From the NCBI GenBank assembly GCA_964491475.1, contig CAZBFO010000001.1:327538-391537 (forward strand): a DNA stretch of 64,000 nt, given 5' to 3'. The notes under the pieces were generated by a model that did not search any database, had not been told where the DNA came from, and saw nothing but the letters and a program-made list of their open reading frames with translations. Origin of the DNA: an uncultured Gammaproteobacteria bacterium (lineage in GTDB: Bacteria; Patescibacteriota; Patescibacteriia; SG8-24). Below are positions 1-9,249 of this stretch, piece after piece (position 1 is the stretch's first letter; every line of letters begins with the position of its first letter). The position numbers were made by a program, and so were the translations under genes.

Positions 1-263
1 CGCACCACCGGTTCGTCCTGCGACAGCGTCGCTGACGACCAGACCCGGTCGGTGTCGACCGTGTCGTTGGCTGCCGCTGGTTGCGGCAGGCAGGGCAGGT
101 TCCGCAGCAGCGCCTCGAGGATGCGATCCTTCCTGGCCCGATGGGCAATGGAGGTATCGGCGCTGGCGTAGGCGACGAGAGTGCGGAGAGCCGGATGAAA
201 GGCGACCATGCCCGCGATGAACAGCGCGGACGGCGAGATGAAAATGCGCGTGTCGTGGGGCAT
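1..263 (-). CDS. hypothetical protein, partial (runs off the window edge); N-terminus MPHDTRIFISPSALFIAGMVAFHPAL...
   Basis: ATG at 263 (minus) with AAAGGAGGGG Shine-Dalgarno 6 nt upstream and a TTGACA-17-TAGCTT promoter upstream. Reading frame stays open to position 1. Not in the ORF track because no stop lies inside the window. Confidence 0.45.
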   Translation of the reverse strand, partial: MPHDTRIFISPSALFIAGMVAFHPALRTLVAYASADTSIAHRARKDRILEALLRNLPCLPQPAAANDTVDTDRVWSSATLSQDEPVV

Positions 264-295
264 CACCCCTCCTTTTGTCCGGTGAGGGACCGATG

Positions 296-324
296 AAGCT
301 ACCACGAAAATCCGCTTTTGTCAA
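296..324 (-). promoter_or_regulatory. sigma70-like promoter TTGACAAAAGCGGATTTTCGTGGTAGCTT (member of the recurring TTGACAAA..TTTTnGTGGTAnnnT family)
   Basis: -35 TTGACA (revcomp of 319-324), 17-bp spacer, extended -10 TGgTAGCTT (revcomp of 296-301). Sits ~25 nt upstream of the ATG at 263. Confidence 0.5.
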
Positions 325-329
325 CGGTG

Positions 330-806
330 TCAGTCTCGCACCGGCTCGATTTCCGCCGCGCAGAAAGCGCAGCGCGTGGCGGCCTTCTTGATGACCGACA
401 GGCACTTTGGGCAATCGCGGGAATCCGCCGGCGGAGGAAGCGGCTTTTCCTTGAGACGGGCCATCACGCGGACCAGGATGAACACCACGAGGGCGGTCAG
501 GACGAAGTCCAAAACGATGCTCACGAACTGGCCGAAGTTCAGGGTGATGGCGCCGGCGGCCTTGGCGGCTTCGAGCGTGTCGAAACGCCCGCCGGAGAGG
601 GTCACGAAAAGGTTGGCGAAATTGACTTTGCCGAGCAGCAGCGAGATCGGCGGGGTGAGCAGATCGGTCACCAGAGAGGTGACCACGCGGCCGAAAGCGG
701 CACCGATGATGACGCCGACCGCCAAGTCGACGGCATTGCCCTTTACCGCGAAATTCTTGAAATCGTCGACGAATTTGGAGCCGGCCTTCAGGTCGATGGG
801 AGGCAT
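330..806 (-). CDS. mscL: large-conductance mechanosensitive channel MscL with a C-terminal Cys4 zinc-ribbon extension
   Basis: 158 aa. N-terminal MscL signature (KGNAVDLAVGVIIGAAFGRVVTSLVTDLLTPP), then TM2 and a cytoplasmic helix. Extra C-terminal CPKC...CAFC motif. Confidence 0.85.
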   Translation of the reverse strand: MPPIDLKAGSKFVDDFKNFAVKGNAVDLAVGVIIGAAFGRVVTSLVTDLLTPPISLLLGKVNFANLFVTLSGGRFDTLEAAKAAGAITLNFGQFVSIVLDFVLTALVVFILVRVMARLKEKPLPPPADSRDCPKCLSVIKKAATRCAFCAAEIEPVRD

Positions 807-871
807 AATCCGAGAGAGTGAGTGATGGCGAAATCCTAACGAAAACGGCCGTTTTTGTCACCCGGCCACCG

Positions 872-900
872 TTGACAAAAGGCCCTTTTTGTGCTATATT
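872..900 (+). promoter_or_regulatory. near-consensus sigma70 promoter TTGACA-17-TGcTATATT
   Basis: TTGACA 872-877, 17-bp spacer with TTTTTGTG, TATATT 895-900 with upstream TG. Lies 68 nt before the ATG at 968. Confidence 0.65.
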
Positions 901-967
901 TTACGGTCATTGGCTGCCACTTTTGCCCATGATAAATGACCGATAACGCTCATTGGGAGGTTCAAAA

Positions 968-1315
968 ATGAGAATGTTCATGCTGATAGGGGTCCGCGAT
1001 TCCTTTGATGACAAAGGCAAGGCCACGAAGGAAGCGCAGCACATCTGCTCTGTGTCAGGCAACAGCGTCGGCGACGCGGCCAGCAGGCTGCGCGGCGCGA
1101 GCTACTCCGGAGTGCTCCGGCACGTGTCCATCTCGAAAATCGTCGGCAGCTGCGCGTCCAACTACGCCATCTTCCGACCGGGGCGGGACACCAGCACCGT
1201 CGTCGAGGCGGCCATCGCCCGGCTCGACGGCAACGTCGAGCAGGGAATCGCCTTCGGCGACTACCTCAACCGTTACACCGACTGGGTGCTGGTCGAGGTG
1301 GCCTCGGTAACCTGA
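968..1315 (+). CDS. hypothetical protein (115 aa)
   Basis: ATG at 968 preceded by GGGAGG. Has its own promoter and a strong downstream terminator. No family recognised. Confidence 0.55.
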   Translation: MRMFMLIGVRDSFDDKGKATKEAQHICSVSGNSVGDAASRLRGASYSGVLRHVSISKIVGSCASNYAIFRPGRDTSTVVEAAIARLDGNVEQGIAFGDYLNRYTDWVLVEVASVT

Positions 1316-1334
1316 AACGTCATCGCTTCTTCTT

Positions 1335-1370
1335 GCGGCGCGCCCTTCCCTGGCGCGCCGCTTCTTTTTT
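1335..1370 (+). terminator. rho-independent terminator (10-bp GC stem GCGGCGCGCC/GGCGCGCCGC + T-tract)
   Basis: Perfect hairpin followed by TTCTTTTTT, immediately after the stop at 1315. Confidence 0.75.
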
Positions 1371-1395
1371 ACGTTTACGCCGAGACGACCGCATG

Positions 1396-1424
1396 AAAAA
1401 ACCGACCAGCCACAGGTCGGTTTT
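1396..1424. terminator. bidirectional terminator hairpin (AAAAA-ACCGACC-loop-GGTCGGT-TTTT)
   Basis: A-tract and T-tract flank a 7-bp stem. Ends the minus-strand transcript coming from the ligase/Nudix side. Confidence 0.6.
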
Positions 1425-1748
1425 GAGCGTCACCGCCTTTTGTTGGGAGGCTTGAGTCGGCGTTCCGGACAGCGCTGCGCGTAGCTTACCAAGTCCGACG
1501 CCTTCAGGGCCGCAAGCACTTCTTTGGCTTTGGCCGGTTCCGCATAAACCACGTACATGCGTTCCAGCTTCGGTTCTTCGTCGCCGGGAAACGTCTGGGC
1601 GTACTTCTGGACGCCAGGTATCGCCGTAACGAAATCCTAGAACGCTTTTTTGTCCGCATTCTTCCTTCTGCTGACCACTATCTGCGTCGCCATTGTCTCT
1701 TCTTTCCGTAGTGGGTTTTCGTCCTGACACTTCGTTCGCGCCGGCTTC

Positions 1749-2264
1749 TCATGAAAGCAGCCGCAACCGTCGCAGCAGCATCTCGCGCTTCGCCGCTCGC
1801 GTGGTCGAAAGCGCGGTCGCGCCGTCGCGCGGCTGCACCCAGCGCGCCGCGGCTAGCTCGACCGGGTCGAGGCGCAGCGCTTCCGGTTGCAAGCAAGTCA
1901 GCGCGAAGAAGAAGTAGCGCTTGCCGACCGAGAAGCCGCGCATATTGGCGCGGCCGGATTCGGCAGCGAGGTCTTCCTCGCCCAAGTAGGCGTCAATCGC
2001 GAACGACTGCGGTCCGAGCAGCAACTCCTCGTGCAGCTCGCGGGCCAGCGCCACGGTCACCGACTCCCCTCCCTCGATGCCGCCCTGCGGGCAGCCCCAG
2101 TCGTCGGGATCCTTGGCCGACTGCACCAGTAGCACGGCACCGTCCGCGTCGCGCAGCATCAATGCCGCGGCCACGGGACGATACTCCTTATACGCGTGGG
2201 CGTCGTGCACGCGCCGGTTGATCCGATCGATGACTTCCAGCGTCAGCTGTTCTCTTTGCGACAT
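1749..2264 (-). CDS. Nudix hydrolase
   Basis: Nudix box GGIEGGESVTVALARELHEELLL (Gx5Ex7REUxEE). ATG at 2264 with AAGGAG Shine-Dalgarno 7 nt upstream. Confidence 0.8.
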   Translation of the reverse strand: MSQREQLTLEVIDRINRRVHDAHAYKEYRPVAAALMLRDADGAVLLVQSAKDPDDWGCPQGGIEGGESVTVALARELHEELLLGPQSFAIDAYLGEEDLAAESGRANMRGFSVGKRYFFFALTCLQPEALRLDPVELAAARWVQPRDGATALSTTRAAKREMLLRRLRLLS

Positions 2265-2363
2265 CTCCAAGCTCCTTGGCAAAGGACGTCTGCAGCATAG
2301 AGGCGGCGGCAGTTTATCGCAAGCCCAAAAGAAAAACCCTCTCCGATCGGAGAGGGCACGCGG

Positions 2364-3533
2364 CTACGCCGCCCTTTGCGCCGTTTTTCGCCTGCGCGGC
2401 TTGGCGCTGTCTTCCACTTGCTGGATGAACTTCCGGCAGATGCTGCGGTAATGCTGCTTTTTCTGCCGCTCGGAATCGAGACGGTACAGGTACTCGCGCC
2501 GGGCCTTGAGGTCGCCCGGCACTTCGCGAACCACCGCTTGGATTTGCGCGATCATGTCGCGTGCCCTGCCGACGATCTCTTCGGGAAGGGTCCGGATCAT
2601 CTTCTCGGCGTTGTGGGCCATCAGGCGCTTCATCAGGTAGCCGTAGGTGAGCTTGGCGGCGACCATCAGCCCGATGTAGGTCTCGAACTTGTACTTCACG
2701 CGCACGCCGTTGGCGAAGCGCGCCACGAGGCCTTCGCGACCGCGAACGGTGGTATCGCGTACCAGCGCCTTGAGGTCGTCGAGCGACGTGCCTTCCCAGC
2801 GCTCGGCGACCGGCAAACTAAGAGCCGCACCGAGATCGAGCAGCTCCGGCCAAGTAAAATCCTTGTGCGTGCCGTTGCGGTACGCGCCGATCAGGGTGAA
2901 CCCTTCTCTGCCGCCGTAGTCGAGATGCACCCGCGTCCGCGGATGGATGATCTCGACGAGCATGGTCACGCCCTCGGGGAACCTGCCGAGCCAGGACTGC
3001 TTTTCGACGATCCGCTGAAGCATCTCGTTGCCGAGCATGGCCGAAGGGCCGTCGAAGGTGACGCGCGTGGCCAAGTGCAGCTCGCCGCGACAGGTGAAGA
3101 CGATTCCCAGATGGCCGTCGTGCTTTTCGGTGGCGACGAACGGTCCTGGCGGTGCCAGCGTCTCCGGATGTTCCCCGTGGTTGAAGAACTTGGGGAACGG
3201 GAAGGCCATCAGGTGGCCGCGGCGGTCGAAGATGATGCCGCGGCAATGCCGGATGGCCGGCGTCCAACCGTCGGGGAAGGCGTGGAGCGTATTATGCGCC
3301 ACGTTGGTGTAGTTGAGCCCGATAAGCGGCAGCTCCTTGTGGAAGTGCGGCTCGACCAACGCCGTCACCGCAGGCATCCCCTTCTTGCGGCGATACCCCA
3401 AGCACTTGGCCATGAACTTCTCGTTGGCCGGCTTCTTCTTCCAGTTGCGGAACTGCTTCTTGCTCTTGATGCGCGCCTTGACCAGCGCGCCGATGAAGGT
3501 ACGAAGGTTCTCTACGGCCTTTTTGGCATCCAA
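2364..3533 (-). CDS. ATP-dependent polynucleotide (RNA) ligase-family nucleotidyltransferase
   Basis: 389 aa. Covalent nucleotidyltransferase motifs: motif I ATEKHDGHLG (KxDG), motif IV EGLVAR, motif V RVKYKFE (K-x-K). Upstream PFPKFFNHGE element typical of RNA ligases. Strong AGGAGG Shine-Dalgarno. Confidence 0.65.
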   Translation of the reverse strand: MDAKKAVENLRTFIGALVKARIKSKKQFRNWKKKPANEKFMAKCLGYRRKKGMPAVTALVEPHFHKELPLIGLNYTNVAHNTLHAFPDGWTPAIRHCRGIIFDRRGHLMAFPFPKFFNHGEHPETLAPPGPFVATEKHDGHLGIVFTCRGELHLATRVTFDGPSAMLGNEMLQRIVEKQSWLGRFPEGVTMLVEIIHPRTRVHLDYGGREGFTLIGAYRNGTHKDFTWPELLDLGAALSLPVAERWEGTSLDDLKALVRDTTVRGREGLVARFANGVRVKYKFETYIGLMVAAKLTYGYLMKRLMAHNAEKMIRTLPEEIVGRARDMIAQIQAVVREVPGDLKARREYLYRLDSERQKKQHYRSICRKFIQQVEDSAKPRRRKTAQRAA

Positions 3534-3584
3534 TGTTTTCCTCCTCTGTTTTTAACGTGCTTCCGTCTCGCGACGGACCGGACA

Positions 3585-3613
3585 TCATGCCAGAACAACG
3601 GTCCGGCGTCAAT
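3585..3613 (-). promoter_or_regulatory. candidate promoter for the ligase gene (TTGACG-17-CATGAT, weak -10)
   Basis: Good -35 but poor -10. Positioned between the tRNA-Glu terminator and the ligase Shine-Dalgarno. Confidence 0.3.
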
Positions 3614-3623
3614 CCGCAGATGC

Positions 3624-3656
3624 AAAAACGGCTTCTCGTGATGAGAAGCCGTTTTT
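3624..3656 (-). terminator. terminator hairpin directly after tRNA-Glu (AAAAACG-GCTTCTC-loop-GAGAAGC-CGTTTTT)
   Basis: Symmetric hairpin with flanking A- and T-tracts, so bidirectional in form. Abuts the CCA end of the tRNA. Confidence 0.7.
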
Positions 3657-3733
3657 GGTAGTCCCAAGGGGATTCGAACCCCTGTTTTCTCCGTGAGAGG
3701 GAGACGTCCTGGACCGGGCTAGACGATGGGACC
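3656..3733 (-). tRNA. tRNA-Glu (anticodon CUC), CCA encoded
   Basis: 78-nt cloverleaf: acceptor GGTCCCA/TGGGACT (G1-U72 wobble), D-stem GTCT/GGAC, anticodon stem TCTCC/GGAGA with loop CTCTCAC, T-arm AGGGG-TTCGAAT-CCCCT. Close to the E. coli tRNA-Glu pattern. Confidence 0.85.
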
Positions 3734-3756
3734 GCGTGCGGTTTTTCGTGTTGGGG

Positions 3757-3785
3757 ACTGTAGCAAAACGGTTCCGATTTGTCGA
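3757..3785 (-). promoter_or_regulatory. promoter for tRNA-Glu: TCGACAAATCGGAACCGTTTTGCTACAGT
   Basis: -35 TCGACA, 17-bp spacer containing TTTTG, -10 TACAGT. About 17 nt upstream of the mature 5' end. Confidence 0.5.
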
Positions 3786-3850
3786 GAGCCTGGAGGCGGC
3801 GGACGTCGTCGCGGCGACGAAAAAGCGCCCGAATCGGACGCTATGGTCAG

Positions 3851-3876
3851 AAAAAGCCGCCCAGTTCGGGGCGGCT
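3851..3876 (-). terminator. rho-independent terminator after murF (GCCGCCC-loop-GGGCGGC + T-tract on minus strand)
   Basis: 7-bp GC stem with a TTTTT run, 6 nt after the murF stop. Confidence 0.65.
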
Positions 3877-3881
3877 GTCGA

Positions 3882-5171
3882 TTAGGCCTTGTCGAGCCAG
3901 TCCTTGTCCTGGCGCACCAGCAGCTTGGGCGCGTCCAGCGGCTCGGCCATGATTTCCTTGACGACGCGCTCCATGCGCATGCCCTGCGAGCCCTTTACCA
4001 GGATCAAGTCGCCCATCTTCATGCGCTCCTGCACGAAGCGGCCGGCTTCGTCGGTGTTGCTGAAGTGAAAGACGTGATCTTCGTTGGCACCGGCGGCCTT
4101 GGCGGCGACGTCGGCGTCATGCATGCGCTCCCCCACCAGCACGATGAGATCGGCGCACTCGGCGGCCTTTTTGCCGACGGCGGCGTGGCCCTCTTCAGTG
4201 GCGGCGCCGAGCTCGAGCATGTCGCCCATGATGGCGATGCGCTTGGCGTTCTCGGGCACGGGCATGTCACGCAGCACTTCGAGCGCTGCGAGCGCGCTCT
4301 TTGGCGCGGCGTTGTAGGTGTCGTCGATGATGACGGTGTGCTTGATGCCGGGAATGTAGCGAAGACGGCCTGCCGGAGCCTTGTACAGGCTGATGGCGTC
4401 GCCGATTTCCACAAGATGCATGCCTTTGGCGATGCCCACGGCGGCCGCTGCCAGGACGGCGTAGATGCCGTGCTTGCCGAGGACGTTGGGAACGAACACG
4501 GGGACGGTGGCGCCGGCGGCAGACATCTTGAAGCGCATGCCGCACTCGTTGTCGATCGAGCACAGGTAGGCCAGCGACTCGGGCAAAGCGCGCACGGTGG
4601 CTTCCTCGTGGAAACCGTAAGACATCACCGTTGCCTTGGTCTTGCCGCGCATGGCCCAGACGCGTTCGTCGTCGCGGTTCAGCACGGCGAACCCTTCCTT
4701 TGGCAGGCGCTCGACGAGCACCCGTTTTTCCTTGGCGATCTCGTCGATCGAGCCCATGAACTCCATGTGGCTCTCCCCCACGGCGGTCTCCACGCCGATG
4801 GTCGGCGCGGCGATGTCGCAGAGGTAGGCGATGTCGCCGGGATGGGTCAGGCCGTACTCCAGAACGAGCAATTTAGGAAACTCGCCGCCACCGAACATTT
4901 TCTGCATCCAGGCTTTGCACAAAATGCCCAGCCAGGCGAAGGCCGACTTGCCGCCCGTGGGAAGATCAAGCACCGACAACGGCAGGCCGATTTCGGTGTT
5001 GAAGTTCTTGGGGCTGCTGCGGACGCGAAAACGCTTGCCCAAGACGGCGCCGATGGCCTCTTTGGCCGAGCTTTTGCCGACCGAGCCGGTTATGCCGATG
5101 ATTTCCGGCTTTTCTCTTGCGATTACCGCCTTGGCGGCATTGGCGAGCGAGGATTCAACGAATTTGCGCAT
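3882..5171 (-). CDS. murF: UDP-N-acetylmuramoyl-tripeptide--D-alanyl-D-alanine ligase MurF
   Basis: Mur ligase P-loop IIGITGSVGKSS, NTEIGLP motif, and MurF-type C-terminus LILVKGSQGMRMERV. 429 aa from the ATG at 5171. Confidence 0.9.
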   Translation of the reverse strand: MRKFVESSLANAAKAVIAREKPEIIGITGSVGKSSAKEAIGAVLGKRFRVRSSPKNFNTEIGLPLSVLDLPTGGKSAFAWLGILCKAWMQKMFGGGEFPKLLVLEYGLTHPGDIAYLCDIAAPTIGVETAVGESHMEFMGSIDEIAKEKRVLVERLPKEGFAVLNRDDERVWAMRGKTKATVMSYGFHEEATVRALPESLAYLCSIDNECGMRFKMSAAGATVPVFVPNVLGKHGIYAVLAAAAVGIAKGMHLVEIGDAISLYKAPAGRLRYIPGIKHTVIIDDTYNAAPKSALAALEVLRDMPVPENAKRIAIMGDMLELGAATEEGHAAVGKKAAECADLIVLVGERMHDADVAAKAAGANEDHVFHFSNTDEAGRFVQERMKMGDLILVKGSQGMRMERVVKEIMAEPLDAPKLLVRQDKDWLDKA

Positions 5172-5194
5172 AATCTGTAGTCCTTGCGGGTCAA

Positions 5195-6973
5195 TTAGGT
5201 CCGCTCTGGGGGAATCTGGAGGTATTGTAACAGGTATTTTGCGATGTCTCCAAAGAGAGGTCCGGCCGAGGATTCGGCCCATTGGACGTCCTTGGGGTTG
5301 TCCAGCTCGACCACGATGACGAAGGCGGGGTTATCCACAGGGGCAAAGCCTGCAAAGGAGCCGATGTTTACGCCTTTGAGGTAGCCATGACCGTCAGGGC
5401 TGGGCACTTGAGCCGTGCCGGTCTTGCCGGCCACGAAGTAGCCGGGAACGGCGGCCTTCTTGCCGTGGCCCTTCTCGACCACGCTTACCAGCATGCCGCT
5501 GACCAGCGCCGCCGCGCGCTTGGTGATGACCTGGCGGATGACTTCGGGTTCGACCGTTTCGGCGGTGCCGTCGGCATGAGCGATGCTGCCGACGACGTAC
5601 GGCTTCATCAGCTTGCCGCCGTTGGCGATTGCCGAGTAGGCCGAAGCCATCTGCAGCGGCGTCACCGTGATGCCCTGCCCAAACGAAGCCGTGGCGCTCC
5701 AGATGTCTCCCTTCTTGCGCAGCGACTCGATGTTGCCGCTCGACTCGGTGTCCAGGTCGATGCCCAGCGGGCTGCCGAATCCGAATGCCTCGACGTACTT
5801 GAGGAACTGCTGCGAGCCGACCAGTCGTGAGGCGTAGATGGTGCCGGTGTTGAGTGACTCGTCGAGCACCTGGGTCATGGTCTGCAGGCCGTGGGCCTTG
5901 TGGTCGGAATTCTGGATGGTGAACGGACCGATCTTGACGCTGCCCTCGTCGACGTAGGTGGAGTTGGGCGTGACCTTGCCGGCGTCGATGGCTGCGGCCA
6001 TGGTGACGGCCTTGAAGATGGAGCCCGGTTCGTAGGCGGAAAAGACGGCCCGGTCGTTGAAGGCGCCCACGTCGGTGACGGCCGAGAGGTCGTTGGGGTC
6101 GAAGTCGGGCACGTTGCAGATGGCCATGACGGCGCCGGTGTTCGGGTTCATCACGATGGCCGAGCCGGTGTCTGCCTGATGCCTGATGACCGCCTCGCGC
6201 AGCTTGGTGCAGGTGACGTACTGGATGTTGCGGTCCAACGTCAGCGTCAGGTCGTCGCCGTCCTTGGCGGCGATGAAGCGGTTGGCGCCGCCGATGAGGT
6301 TACCGAGCGAATCGTCGGCGGCGACCGCGGCGGAAGTACCCGACAGCTCTGACTGCCAATGCCCTTCCACGCCGTACCGGCCGACGCGATTGCCGGCATC
6401 GTCGGAGCCGTAAAAGCCGACCGCCTGGGAGAACGATGACTTCTCCGGATAGTAGCGGTATTTGGAAGGGTCGAAGCCGATGCCGGCGAGGTTCAGCGCC
6501 TTCACTTCGGCCATCAGGTCGTCATCGGCCTTGGGTTTGAGCGGGACGTAAGGGGCGTCCTTGCGCGACAGCTTTTCGAGCAGCACCGGCATGTCCATTT
6601 CGAGCACCGGGGCCAAAGCGTTGGCGGCCTCTGCCGGATTCTTGATAGCCCTGGTGTTGGCGTAGACGGTGTAGAGCGTCTTGTTCACGGCCACCGGAAA
6701 CTTGCCGTCGGGCGACTTGGGGTCAAGCGCGTAAATCGTGCCGCGGTCCGGGACGAAGTTGGAGTAACGGTCCCGTTGGCTCTCCGCCAAATCGGCATAA
6801 AACTGGCGTTGCAGCACCTGCAGCACGAACAGCCGCCAGCCGATGGCGGTCATCGCCAACGCCATGAATCCCTTGAGCACCATGAACCGACGCTCTTCCG
6901 AGGAAAAGCGCGGTGACTGACGCGCATGCGCTTGGGAAGGGCGCGGGCGGATGTACGGGATGCGGGGACTCAT
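5195..6973 (-). CDS. ftsI: peptidoglycan D,D-transpeptidase FtsI / PBP2-class penicillin-binding protein
   Basis: N-terminal TM anchor plus dimerisation domain. Transpeptidase motifs S-x-x-K (SIFKAV), SxN region, and KTGTA. The ATG at 6973 overlaps the upstream TGA (ATGA). Confidence 0.9.
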   Translation of the reverse strand: MSPRIPYIRPRPSQAHARQSPRFSSEERRFMVLKGFMALAMTAIGWRLFVLQVLQRQFYADLAESQRDRYSNFVPDRGTIYALDPKSPDGKFPVAVNKTLYTVYANTRAIKNPAEAANALAPVLEMDMPVLLEKLSRKDAPYVPLKPKADDDLMAEVKALNLAGIGFDPSKYRYYPEKSSFSQAVGFYGSDDAGNRVGRYGVEGHWQSELSGTSAAVAADDSLGNLIGGANRFIAAKDGDDLTLTLDRNIQYVTCTKLREAVIRHQADTGSAIVMNPNTGAVMAICNVPDFDPNDLSAVTDVGAFNDRAVFSAYEPGSIFKAVTMAAAIDAGKVTPNSTYVDEGSVKIGPFTIQNSDHKAHGLQTMTQVLDESLNTGTIYASRLVGSQQFLKYVEAFGFGSPLGIDLDTESSGNIESLRKKGDIWSATASFGQGITVTPLQMASAYSAIANGGKLMKPYVVGSIAHADGTAETVEPEVIRQVITKRAAALVSGMLVSVVEKGHGKKAAVPGYFVAGKTGTAQVPSPDGHGYLKGVNIGSFAGFAPVDNPAFVIVVELDNPKDVQWAESSAGPLFGDIAKYLLQYLQIPPERT

Positions 6974-8256
6974 TTGCATGCCCCCTTCTCGTTGGTGATG
7001 CCGAAGTCGAACAGCTTGCCCGGACCGTTGGGATTGCAACCCACTTCGACTTCGTCGCCGTCAGAGACGCCGTCGCCGTCGGAATCCCGGTTGTTGGGAT
7101 CAGTCCCGTAGAAGGCCTCGAGCGAATCAGACAGGCCGTCATGGTCGGTGTCGGACTGGGTGAGGACGGCACCGCCTCCGGAACCGCCCAAGCCGTTGCC
7201 GCCGCCGGTCTCATCGGTACCGTGCTGCACTTCGCCGATCTTGGCCATCGGCAAATGCTGCTGCAAGCCCGAGAGCAGCGACAGCACGAAGGAGGTCACG
7301 TCGGTGAAGTCGCCGGGCGCGTCGGTGCTGCCGATGCGGTTGAAGTTGGAGAAGCGGATATCTGCCGTGAGGTCGCCGCGCCGCGTGCCGGTGTCGATGC
7401 GGACTGCGCACTTGGCGCGATACAGGTAGTAATCGCGGCTGCCGATCCAGAATTCGCATTCCTTGAACGTCAGGCCCGCAAAAAGCGTCTTGGCGGCGGT
7501 CCTTTCGGCGTCGGTGATCGGCCGCTTGAGACGCGCCGCCTCGACCTTCTCGTAAAAGTCCTCCATCAGGACGTTGCCCTCGTCGGTGCGCACCTTGTAG
7601 TGGAAATTCTTGACGCCATCGACGGTTTCGTCCTCAAGCCGCTCGGCGACCGTGAAGAACAGGGTCTTCTTGAACAGCTTGACCAGCGACTTGGCGTCGT
7701 CGTCTGACATGGGCGAAAAGCCCGTGCCGACCATGGGAACGGTCAGCATCTCGAGCATTTTCTGCCGCGCGAGCCGTAACCACTTTCCCTTGAATTTTCC
7801 GAATTGGAGCACGCCCACCTTTTCGGGAATCGCGGTCAGGCGCAGGTAATCGATATCGCCGTCGCGGACGTAATCGCCGGCGAAGTCGTACGGATGGGCG
7901 CTGCCGATCTTCATCTGGAACTGATGGCGCGCCTTGAGCGCTTCGGGATCGCTCATGTTGAACGTGCCTCCCGAATGCCAAGTCAGCGCCTCGGGAGACG
8001 ACTGGTAGGAGCCGTCGGCGCCCTTCTGCGCGGACGATCCGGAGTACGAGATGTCCGCAACCACGTCGACTGCCTTGAGCGAGACCATTTTTGCCTGCAT
8101 GAAACGCAGGATCTCGGATGAGTACGGAAGCGCGAAAAGCAGCAGCAACAGCGCCGCGGCAAAGCCGGCCGCGACGACGGATATGAAAACGGTCAGCAGG
8201 ACGTAAGGCTGCGCGTACCAGCGCGGACCGACATCTTGTCCTTCGAAAGGCTCCAT
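6970..8256 (-). CDS. membrane-anchored hypothetical protein with C-terminal thrombospondin-type-3-like Ca-binding Asp-rich repeats
   Basis: 428 aa. N-terminal TM (LLTVFISVVAAGFAAALLLLLFAL). C-terminal DTDHDGLSDSLEAFYGTDPNNRDSDGDGVSDGDE. Shares a Y-x-R-L-[ST]-x-[IL]-P...GKW segment with the upstream gene. Translationally coupled to ftsI. Confidence 0.6.
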   Translation of the reverse strand: MEPFEGQDVGPRWYAQPYVLLTVFISVVAAGFAAALLLLLFALPYSSEILRFMQAKMVSLKAVDVVADISYSGSSAQKGADGSYQSSPEALTWHSGGTFNMSDPEALKARHQFQMKIGSAHPYDFAGDYVRDGDIDYLRLTAIPEKVGVLQFGKFKGKWLRLARQKMLEMLTVPMVGTGFSPMSDDDAKSLVKLFKKTLFFTVAERLEDETVDGVKNFHYKVRTDEGNVLMEDFYEKVEAARLKRPITDAERTAAKTLFAGLTFKECEFWIGSRDYYLYRAKCAVRIDTGTRRGDLTADIRFSNFNRIGSTDAPGDFTDVTSFVLSLLSGLQQHLPMAKIGEVQHGTDETGGGNGLGGSGGGAVLTQSDTDHDGLSDSLEAFYGTDPNNRDSDGDGVSDGDEVEVGCNPNGPGKLFDFGITNEKGACK

Positions 8257-8259
8257 AGG

Positions 8260-9249
8260 TCAGTTCGTCGGTTTCTTGAATGCGGCCATGAGATCGCTGT
8301 ACGGGGTGATGTCATCGGGCGGCTTCACCTCGACGGGCTCGTTCCAGGAAGTGAACTTGAGCACCATGCTGAAATGATTGGCGTCGGAACCGGCGTCGGA
8401 ACCGCCGGCGTCGCGGGAGGAAACGGTCAGCTGCAATTGCGCCAGCTCCTCCTGCCGCGTGTTGACCCAGACTTCCAGGGACACATCGCGTTTCGCCAAC
8501 TCGTCGGCCACCTGCTGCATCTCTTCGGCCGAGAGCGAACGGCCGAGCACCAGGCTCTTGAGGTCCTGGGAAAAGGTCACCAACCGGTCGGGATGCATCG
8601 GCAGGATGAACCGCTTGATCGGCTGCGTGGTCATTTCGGTCAGCGCAAGAGGCACCGGCGTGCCGAAGAAACCGGGCTTGACCAATTCCTGGCGGAGCGA
8701 TTGCCAGCTGGCTGCCGGACGCGAGCCGGTGGAGGCGGCGCCTTCCGCTGCGGCGGTCTGGGGAGAGCGGACGATCAGCGAAGCCAGCGTGCGCGCATCC
8801 ATCGAGAACCATTTGCCATTCACCCGTTTCACCAAGGCGGCATCCTTGGCGGTTAGCGGAAGGTTGGAGAGCCTGGCATAAGCCGTACCGTCCTGTCCGG
8901 CGCTGACGTCCAGCGTCAGGTCCTTGCCGCCGTCACCCTGCCCGATCAAATCGAAGGTGGCCTTGCCGCTTGGCGGCCGGTCCTTCGGCATGTTCATGCC
9001 CCCTTCGCCAACGAAGACGATCGGCACCGGAGCACCTTTCGGATCTCCGCCCGCTGCGGCAATCGTCGACTCTGGAGCGAACGTCCCGATGGTGGCGGCT
9101 GCCATGAACGAAACGTCCCCGTCGAGCTTGTGCAGCGCCGTCAGCACGACTTTCTCCGGTCGCGTGGCGAAGAACACCGTCGGCACGAGCGCACCGGCAG
9201 CCATGAGCGCGAAGACGGCGACGATGACGGCTTGGCGTGACTTTTCCAT
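8260..9249 (-). CDS. membrane-anchored hypothetical protein (paralogous segment shared with 6970-8256)
   Basis: 329 aa. N-terminal TM (AVIVAVFALMAAGALVPTVFFA). YARLSNLP...VNGKWFSM aligns with YLRLTAIP...KGKWLRL of its neighbour. 10-nt gap to rarA and 3-nt gap to the next gene. Confidence 0.55.
   Translation of the reverse strand: MEKSRQAVIVAVFALMAAGALVPTVFFATRPEKVVLTALHKLDGDVSFMAAATIGTFAPESTIAAAGGDPKGAPVPIVFVGEGGMNMPKDRPPSGKATFDLIGQGDGGKDLTLDVSAGQDGTAYARLSNLPLTAKDAALVKRVNGKWFSMDARTLASLIVRSPQTAAAEGAASTGSRPAASWQSLRQELVKPGFFGTPVPLALTEMTTQPIKRFILPMHPDRLVTFSQDLKSLVLGRSLSAEEMQQVADELAKRDVSLEVWVNTRQEELAQLQLTVSSRDAGGSDAGSDANHFSMVLKFTSWNEPVEVKPPDDITPYSDLMAAFKKPTN

Follow-up and report, generated by a model that had tools for sequence, protein, structure and literature searches.

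The subject of this analysis is a 64-kb window of DNA (64,000 nt of contig CAZBFO010000001.1, from a genome recorded as an uncultured Gammaproteobacteria bacterium) and, within it, a gene at positions 2364–3533 on the minus strand whose 389 aa product resembles the RNA ligases. We consider the gene to encode a stand-alone, monocistronic ATP-dependent RNA ligase of the Rnl1 family, to which the flanking tRNA and Nudix genes are chance neighbours, and we place the probability of this reading at roughly three in four. A first-pass annotation of the window had described the reading frame, which is indeed present on the minus strand with a TTG start, as an RNA ligase gene forming a candidate RNA repair or maintenance cassette with an upstream tRNA-Glu gene and a downstream Nudix hydrolase gene. 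The family assignment was borne out and could be narrowed to Rnl1; the cassette could not be sustained.

Family, active site and appended modules of the ligase

Profile, sequence and fold comparisons all placed the protein closest to RNA ligase 1 of phage T4 (T4 Rnl1; gp63, the product of rnlA; PDB 2C5U, 5TT6 and 9DO4). The protein scored 45.5 bits on the Pfam model PF09511 (RNA_lig_T4_1), which has its cut-off at 28.3, and a phmmer search of the PDB with the single ligase sequence gave significant matches to T4 Rnl1 only (three chain sequences). A profile made from an alignment of 40 ligase homologues, hereafter A1, matched T4 Rnl1 in the PDB with an E value of 3.8e-27, the ligase domain of the fungal tRNA ligase Trl1 (Trl1-LIG) with 4.6e-8 and the archaeal ligase Rnl3 with 1e-6. 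PHROG 562 (‘RNA ligase and tail fiber attachment catalyst’, the T4 gp63 family) was matched over residues 86–375 (E 1.8e-34), and an hhalign comparison of A1 with T4 rnlA (NC_000866) gave a probability of 99% and an E value of 3e-18 across T4 residues 48–276. An AlphaFold2 model of the ligase (predicted local distance difference test score, pLDDT, 94.5; predicted template modelling score 0.88) retrieved T4 Rnl1 first in Foldseek (E 1e-14), then Trl1-LIG and then Rnl3, with Rnl5, Rnl2 and the DNA ligases far behind.

This comparison across ligase and capping enzyme families, by hidden Markov model (HMM) and by structure, also disposes of the other classes to which a protein with nucleotidyltransferase motifs might be assigned. 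A DNA ligase or a GTP-dependent capping enzyme is ruled out, as motif V is followed by helices alone rather than by an oligonucleotide-binding (OB) fold and the best homology lies elsewhere: the first DNA ligase appeared at Foldseek rank 24, with E values of at least 1e-5 and partial alignments, and no capping enzyme was found among the top 50 matches of the model. A tRNA ligase of the Rnl6/Trl1 type was likewise rejected, since the 389 aa leave no extra domains and the Trl1-LIG profile match is 19 orders of magnitude weaker than that to T4 Rnl1. By sequence, the protein is thus best described as a catalytically intact ligase of the Rnl1 (T4 RnlA/gp63) type. It is new and so far uncharacterised, but the family it joins is known and has been annotated automatically: relatives carry the NCBI name ‘T4 RnlA family RNA ligase’.

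The active site is conserved throughout. The motifs KHDG (K137–G140), EGLVAR (from E267), KYK (K280–K282) and PFPKFFNHGE (residues 112–121) all lie where the first-pass annotation had placed them, in columns that are invariant or almost so among the 40 homologues, and alignment to T4 Rnl1 recovers nucleotidyltransferase motifs I, III, IV and V, including the catalytic lysine. Wang et al. reportedly established in 2003 that the essential residues of T4 Rnl1 are R54, K75, F77, K99, G102, K119, E159, E227, G228, K240 and K242. The counterparts in the window ligase are, in the same order, R98, K115, F117, K137, G140, R157, E194, E267, G268, K280 and K282; K115 is nearly invariant in the 40 homologues, and all the others are fully so. 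The N sub-module typical of Rnl1 is also present, with C97-R98-G99 and K115-F116-F117-N118 aligning with the CRG and KFFN elements of T4 in invariant or near-invariant columns. Arg54 and Lys75, the T4 residues equivalent to R98 and K115, are essential in T4 Rnl1 (PMC6379707).

The ligase clades are defined by the domain attached to the nucleotidyltransferase core, and the C-domain of T4 Rnl1 confers its specificity for tRNA repair (PMC6379707). In the window ligase, an N-terminal helical extension (residues ~1–55) precedes the N sub-module and nucleotidyltransferase domain (~56–290), which are followed by a helical C-domain (~290–389); in the AlphaFold2 model the whole region after motif V, residues 290–389, consists of ~100 aa of helices. 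Intermediate sequences suggest a distant relationship between this C-domain and the domain that gives T4 Rnl1 its tRNA specificity. The C-domain of the family aligns with that of bacterial relatives of ~350 aa with an hhalign probability of 98%, and the C-domain of those relatives aligns in turn with that of T4 Rnl1 with a probability of 84% (E 7e-6); the HMM of that group of relatives scored 19.4 bits, a value to be set against a maximum of 9.3 bits in 500 shuffles.

The N-terminal extension comprises three helices over ~55 aa, with conserved L10, W31 and Y47 (A1 profile and model). It is absent from T4 Rnl1, from the phage homologues and from the large bacterial group of ~350 aa, and on the evidence of the alignments it is specific to a clade labelled Patescibacteria and Melainabacteria.

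The window ligase therefore shares with T4 Rnl1 the nucleotidyltransferase core with motifs I, Ia, III, IV and V, and the Rnl1-specific N sub-module with the CRG arginine and the KFFN lysine and phenylalanine. The C-terminal domain is all-helical in both, the tie between the two running through intermediate sequences, and T4 Rnl1 is the top match of the window ligase by sequence, by profile and by fold. The differences are nevertheless considerable: identity is just ~17–23%, the three-helix N-terminal extension is found only in the window ligase of the two, and its C-domain is shorter (~100 versus 120 aa). Furthermore, the window ligase is cellular whereas that of T4 is phage-encoded, and it has no neighbouring polynucleotide kinase/phosphatase (Pnkp), whereas in T4 the Pnkp gene pseT lies ~1.4 kb from rnlA (NC_000866). 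The fungal and plant Trl1-LIG domains (Rnl6 clade; PDB 6N0T, 6N67 and 9QW7) have the adenylyltransferase fold and an Rnl1-like N sub-module in common with the window ligase and provide the second-best structural and profile match. That match is, however, much weaker (4.6e-8 versus 3.8e-27), and the window ligase lacks the fused kinase and cyclic-phosphodiesterase domains of Trl1. Trl1-LIG is itself defined by a different C-domain and a requirement for a 2′-PO4 (PMC6379707).

The wider family is large. Searching 1.84 billion cluster representatives with the A1 profile returned 15,344 matches at E ≤1e-3 and 3,833 at E ≤1e-30, and 1,164 phage records matched, the best of them with 38% identity over a partial alignment. 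Far fewer proteins, ~135 among the sequences fetched, make up the full-length, N-extended clade, which has a protein length of ~375–390 aa and source-record labels that, for named records, are mainly Patescibacteria and Melainabacteria/Obscuribacterales; full-length orthologues with 40–78% identity are spread over this clade. Among the ligase loci from 55 GTDB species that we compared, 21 have record titles of the Patescibacteria type, 18 of the Melainabacteria type, 12 read ‘uncultured Gammaproteobacteria’ (a label used here as recorded), one is titled Binatia and three are unclassified. Some distant relatives with an Rnl1-like domain are much longer (P0180, 1088 aa; P0190, 570 aa; P0224, 590 aa; P0235, 784 aa; P0254, 726 aa), and in these the domain may be fused to healing domains or to others.

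Transcription signals and gene neighbourhood

All features of the locus considered here are on the minus strand, in the co-directional order tRNA, ligase, Nudix that the first-pass annotation had given; that annotation named no strand and passed over a small reading frame at 1430–1693, which its coordinates (1430–3785) take in. The tRNA-Glu(CUC) gene (3656–3733; ARAGORN; Rfam RF00005, 59.5 bits), which encodes its CCA end, is preceded by a candidate sigma-70-like promoter, TCGACA-17-TACAGT (3757–3785), identified by its match to the consensus only, and is followed by a predicted intrinsic terminator of the bidirectional type, with a perfect 15-bp stem, an A-tract and a U-tract (3623–3657; free energy −23.9, z-score −6.4). 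The tRNA gene would thus form a transcription unit of its own, as had been claimed, and it was the sole Rfam match at gathering thresholds in positions 1–9000 of the window. The ligase gene has a candidate sigma-70-like promoter of its own (TTGACG-17-CATGAT, 3584–3612) and a strong Shine-Dalgarno sequence, AGGAGG (3540–3545), 6 nt upstream of the TTG start. Directly after the ligase stop codon is a second predicted intrinsic terminator, formed by a 9-bp GC-rich stem and then UUUUUCUUUU (2336–2357; free energy −21.1, z-score −2.7). This hairpin, which parts the stop codon of the ligase from the start of the Nudix gene, was overlooked in the first-pass annotation; with the hairpin at 3657–3623, it brackets the ligase gene. 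The Nudix reading frame is open from a TTG at 2282 (1749–2282), but its real start is likely to be the ATG at 2261, in front of which is an AAGGAG; the gene would then occupy 1749–2261 and encode 170 aa.

The same layout is found in the closest relative (locus L056), the ligase of which is 78% identical to that of the window. There, too, a terminator lies behind the gene upstream of the ligase, a promoter-like site (TTGACA-17-TATTTT) occupies the equivalent position before a TTG start, and 3′ of the ligase a hairpin with a T-tract is followed in turn by a promoter-like site, an AAGGAG and the Nudix ATG. As the ligase has a predicted terminator to either side, separate promoter-like sites and Shine-Dalgarno sequences serve the individual genes and L056 repeats the arrangement, these signals predict that tRNA-Glu(CUC), ligase and Nudix are three independent transcription units and not one. 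The first-pass annotation had ended a joint transcript at a bidirectional terminator: a hairpin with a U-tract is indeed present at 1424–1398, but a single ligase–Nudix transcript does not fit the intervening terminator at 2357–2336.

Comparison of gene order across relatives gave a similar picture. In none of the 55 related ligase loci is there a Nudix gene beside the ligase, as judged by BLASTP, by a Nudix-box regular expression and by scanning the 103 immediate neighbours with Pfam, and the commonest Pfam family among those neighbours occurs no more than four times. Nor is there an adjacent tRNA-Glu in any of the 55 (ARAGORN); a tRNA of any kind lies within 6 kb of the ligase in 12, and the sole tRNA-Glu has a UUC anticodon, is ~4 kb away and is on the opposite strand. 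In the Patescibacteria-labelled loci we found no conserved partner of any sort, and all-versus-all clustering of the neighbouring open reading frames (ORFs) yielded Melainabacteria-specific synteny only.

Seen from the Nudix gene, the outcome is much the same. Five loci with a Nudix orthologue were fetched (L056–L060), and the ligase adjoins it only in L056, where the gene upstream of the ligase is parB and not a tRNA. Loci L057 and L058 (Nudix orthologue 59% identical) have the order murF … GMC-oxidoreductase–Nudix–mscL and no ligase; in L060 (69% identity) the Nudix gene follows small unrelated ORFs, again with no ligase; in L059 (44% identity) it follows an ABC transporter. The window has mscL at 330–806, and since Nudix orthologues elsewhere lie by mscL as in the window, the Nudix gene is syntenic with mscL. 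What lies between murF and Nudix varies among relatives, and in the window lineage this interval happens to hold the tRNA and the ligase. The proximity of tRNA-Glu, ligase and Nudix is best read as a lineage-specific accident of gene order, and not as an RNA-repair cassette.

Proposed function and alternative explanations

By analogy with T4 Rnl1, and in keeping with the conserved active site, Lys137 would attack ATP to form a ligase-AMP intermediate, the AMP would be handed to a 5′-PO4 RNA end, and the RNA 3′-OH would then attack the adenylylated end and so seal the break. The helical C-domain would most likely steer the ligase to breaks in structured RNA loops, for example the anticodon loops of tRNAs, and the physiological role would by the same analogy be one in RNA repair. 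A search for genes of kinases, phosphatases or phosphodiesterases around the ligase found none in positions 1–16.8 kb of the window (12 kb beyond the ligase, and 1.4 kb to the edge), which agrees with the first-pass annotation as to the absence of a polynucleotide kinase/phosphatase partner; none encoding a polynucleotide kinase/phosphatase was found among the 103 immediate neighbours in the 55 relatives. The healing enzymes could be encoded elsewhere in the genome; alternatively, the ligase could act on breaks that already have 3′-OH and 5′-PO4 ends and can be joined without healing, of the sort that metal-dependent PIN-type toxins produce.

Several observations weigh against a stand-alone Rnl1-type ligase that repairs tRNA. 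The score against the NCBIfam model for T4 RnlA equivalogs (TIGR02308) is 30.9 bits, far under the cut-off of 242, and our literature search returned nothing specific on Rnl1 ligases of Patescibacteria or the candidate phyla radiation (CPR), and no biochemistry for the clade. Direct alignment of the family C-domain with that of T4 ends after the first two helices; as direct similarity goes no further, specificity for tRNA is an extrapolation. Some read-through past the predicted terminator hairpins is possible, and the ligase–Nudix order kept in L056 could conceivably reflect a lineage-restricted functional link. Finally, healing enzymes could be encoded elsewhere in the genome, beyond the 64-kb window.

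An alternative that we regard as possible, although unlikely, is a heal-and-seal system with unlinked components, in which Pnkp or another end-healing enzyme would act with the ligase against anticodon nucleases that leave 2′,3′-cyclic phosphate as well as 5′-OH termini. T4 Rnl1, the closest characterised relative, operates with Pnkp (PMC6379707), and the proximity of pseT to rnlA in T4 points the same way. A further hint of an end-processing partner comes from Melainabacteria/Obscuribacterales, where 10 of the 18 loci (L007, L012, L014, L015, L018, L023, L026, L029, L033 and L038) have a gene for a phosphoesterase of the endonuclease/exonuclease/phosphatase (EEP) family (PF03372, 370–470 aa) directly downstream of the ligase, on the same strand and 10–1150 bp 3′ of it. 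The EEP protein, for which a sequence search found no relative in the PDB, may be the end-processing partner of the ligase in that phylum. However, the window has no homologue of it, and with that protein excepted the healing genes sought in the window and among the 103 neighbours are missing.

A more ambitious interpretation, to which we assign a low probability, is that the N-extended Rnl1 clade constitutes a distinct cellular RNA-repair ligase, one that either dispenses with healing (for instance at 3′-OH/5′-PO4 breaks left by metal-dependent PIN/VapC-type tRNases) or works with a new kind of end-processing partner, at which the EEP gene of the Melainabacteria loci hints. If this were true, the divergent C-domain and the extra N-terminal module could mark off a ligase sub-clade that is new and has an RNA target of its own.

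The RNA repair or maintenance cassette of the first-pass annotation, in which the Nudix enzyme would turn 5′-triphosphate ends into ligatable 5′-monophosphates, now seems very improbable. In its favour are the adjacency and shared direction of the three genes, the retention of the ligase–Nudix order in L056 and the likeness of the Nudix protein to RppH. The downstream gene does encode a Nudix hydrolase domain (PF00293, E 8e-17), and an RppH/NudH-like identity is plausible: hhalign of the Nudix family against Escherichia coli RppH gave a probability of 98% (E 5e-14), the top 11 Foldseek matches of the model (pLDDT 93.7) were all E. coli RppH, with template modelling (TM) scores of 0.64–0.71, and the YRP and WxxPQGG motifs, invariant in this small Nudix family, align with Y7-R8-P9 and W33..Q37 of RppH. 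Thus the window protein has the Nudix box, the N-terminal YRP and the WxxPQGG of E. coli RppH; it is, on the other hand, only 22–25% identical to it and has Leu in place of the Gly of the REUxEExGU box. The RppH type proposed earlier is favoured by motifs, profile and fold but not by the five NCBIfam RppH models, against which the protein scores 24–37 bits, far below the cut-offs of 116–259; NudB, NudI and the Ap4A hydrolases have structural scores nearly equal to those of RppH, and the best PDB match by sequence is DIPP1/NUDT3. The Nudix protein is best treated as a neighbour of the ligase and not as a demonstrated partner.

Against the cassette stand the terminator and the separate promoter-like and Shine-Dalgarno sequences between ligase and Nudix, in the window and in L056 alike, and the record of the relatives: an adjacent Nudix gene in 0/55 ligase loci, an adjacent ligase in 1/5 Nudix loci, no conserved tRNA neighbour, and Nudix orthologues with 59–69% identity that adjoin mscL behind different upstream genes and without a ligase. 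Such a lack of conserved ligase–Nudix adjacency in relatives is the outcome that the first-pass annotation itself had named as refuting the cassette. The catalytic box is also degenerate in close orthologues of the Nudix protein. Moreover, RppH chemistry, the conversion of 5′-triphosphate to 5′-monophosphate, concerns the ends of primary transcripts; breaks made by ribonucleases carry no 5′-triphosphates, and that chemistry is irrelevant to the ends a repair ligase would join.

Least credible of all is the view that a phage or mobile element, lodged beside a tRNA gene, left the ligase gene behind as a decaying or selfish relic without function for the host. In its favour, phages carry many members of the family (1,164 records), the tRNA gene just upstream of the ligase is of a kind that classically serves as an integration site, and the murF–Nudix interval differs between relatives. 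Against it, the best phage match is partial, with only 38% identity, GC content equals that of the flanks, and att-like repeats, an integrase and phage genes are all absent; the intact catalytic residues together with widespread full-length orthologues at 40–78% identity across the clade indicate purifying selection in cellular genomes. Recent insertion at the tRNA was rejected on the same grounds, there being neither a GC anomaly nor att-like direct repeats. PADLOC, a search for an anti-phage defence context, gave no match for the ligase.

The stand-alone Rnl1-type ligase, our preferred reading, is of limited import in itself: bacterial homologues of T4 RNA ligase 1 number in the thousands, most recently joined by this uncharacterised one, and it matters little. 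What is gained is that a tempting but unsupported ‘repair cassette’ annotation is removed, and that small Patescibacteria-labelled genomes are seen to keep a full-length ligase of this type, with catalytic residues intact and a clade-specific N-terminal module. That no end-healing partner is linked to the ligase adds a modest residual value. The enzyme could reveal a healing-independent route of tRNA repair or prove a useful new ligase reagent. As leads, only the N-terminal module and the EEP gene in 10 of the 18 Melainabacteria loci are mildly novel.

Neighbouring genes and minor observations

Within the small Nudix family, the segment of the Nudix box at residues 74–79 is intact in the window protein (RELHEE) and reads RELREK in P0120 and RGLRRK in P0121 (alignment A3). 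Such a degenerate box alongside invariant YRP and WxxPQGG motifs suggests that hydrolase activity has been lost in some members, or that their role is a different one.

The Nudix gene is followed by a small conserved ORF (1430–1693) that has no Pfam match and is probably co-transcribed with it. The hairpin at 1398–1424, of the bidirectional type with a 10-bp stem and a U-tract, is predicted to close this Nudix/small-ORF unit, although its z-score is just −1.8. The only orthologue of the small ORF found, at 5504–5794 of L056, is intact, encodes 96 aa and is 57% identical. In the window the frame is interrupted by an in-frame TAG at 1637–1639, codon 19, where L056 has Glu; a single G-to-T change suffices to produce it, and the TAG could be a nonsense mutation, a sign of a pseudogene or an assembly error. 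ORFs antisense to the genes described, such as that at 2376–3641 on the plus strand, were dismissed as artefacts of DNA with 62% GC.

The genes around the locus encode MurF, a penicillin-binding protein (PBP) transpeptidase, a thrombospondin type-3 (TSP3) repeat protein and MgsA. The PBP/FtsI-like gene belongs to a dcw-like cluster beside murF, and its annotated start region is overlapped by the gene for the TSP3-repeat protein (428 aa, PF18884; 6970–8256, minus strand). On the other side of the locus, mscL is flanked by a 42-nt imperfect inverted repeat (288–329 and 867–908, 74% complementary), the right arm of which (867–908) holds a promoter-like sequence, TTGACA...TATATT.

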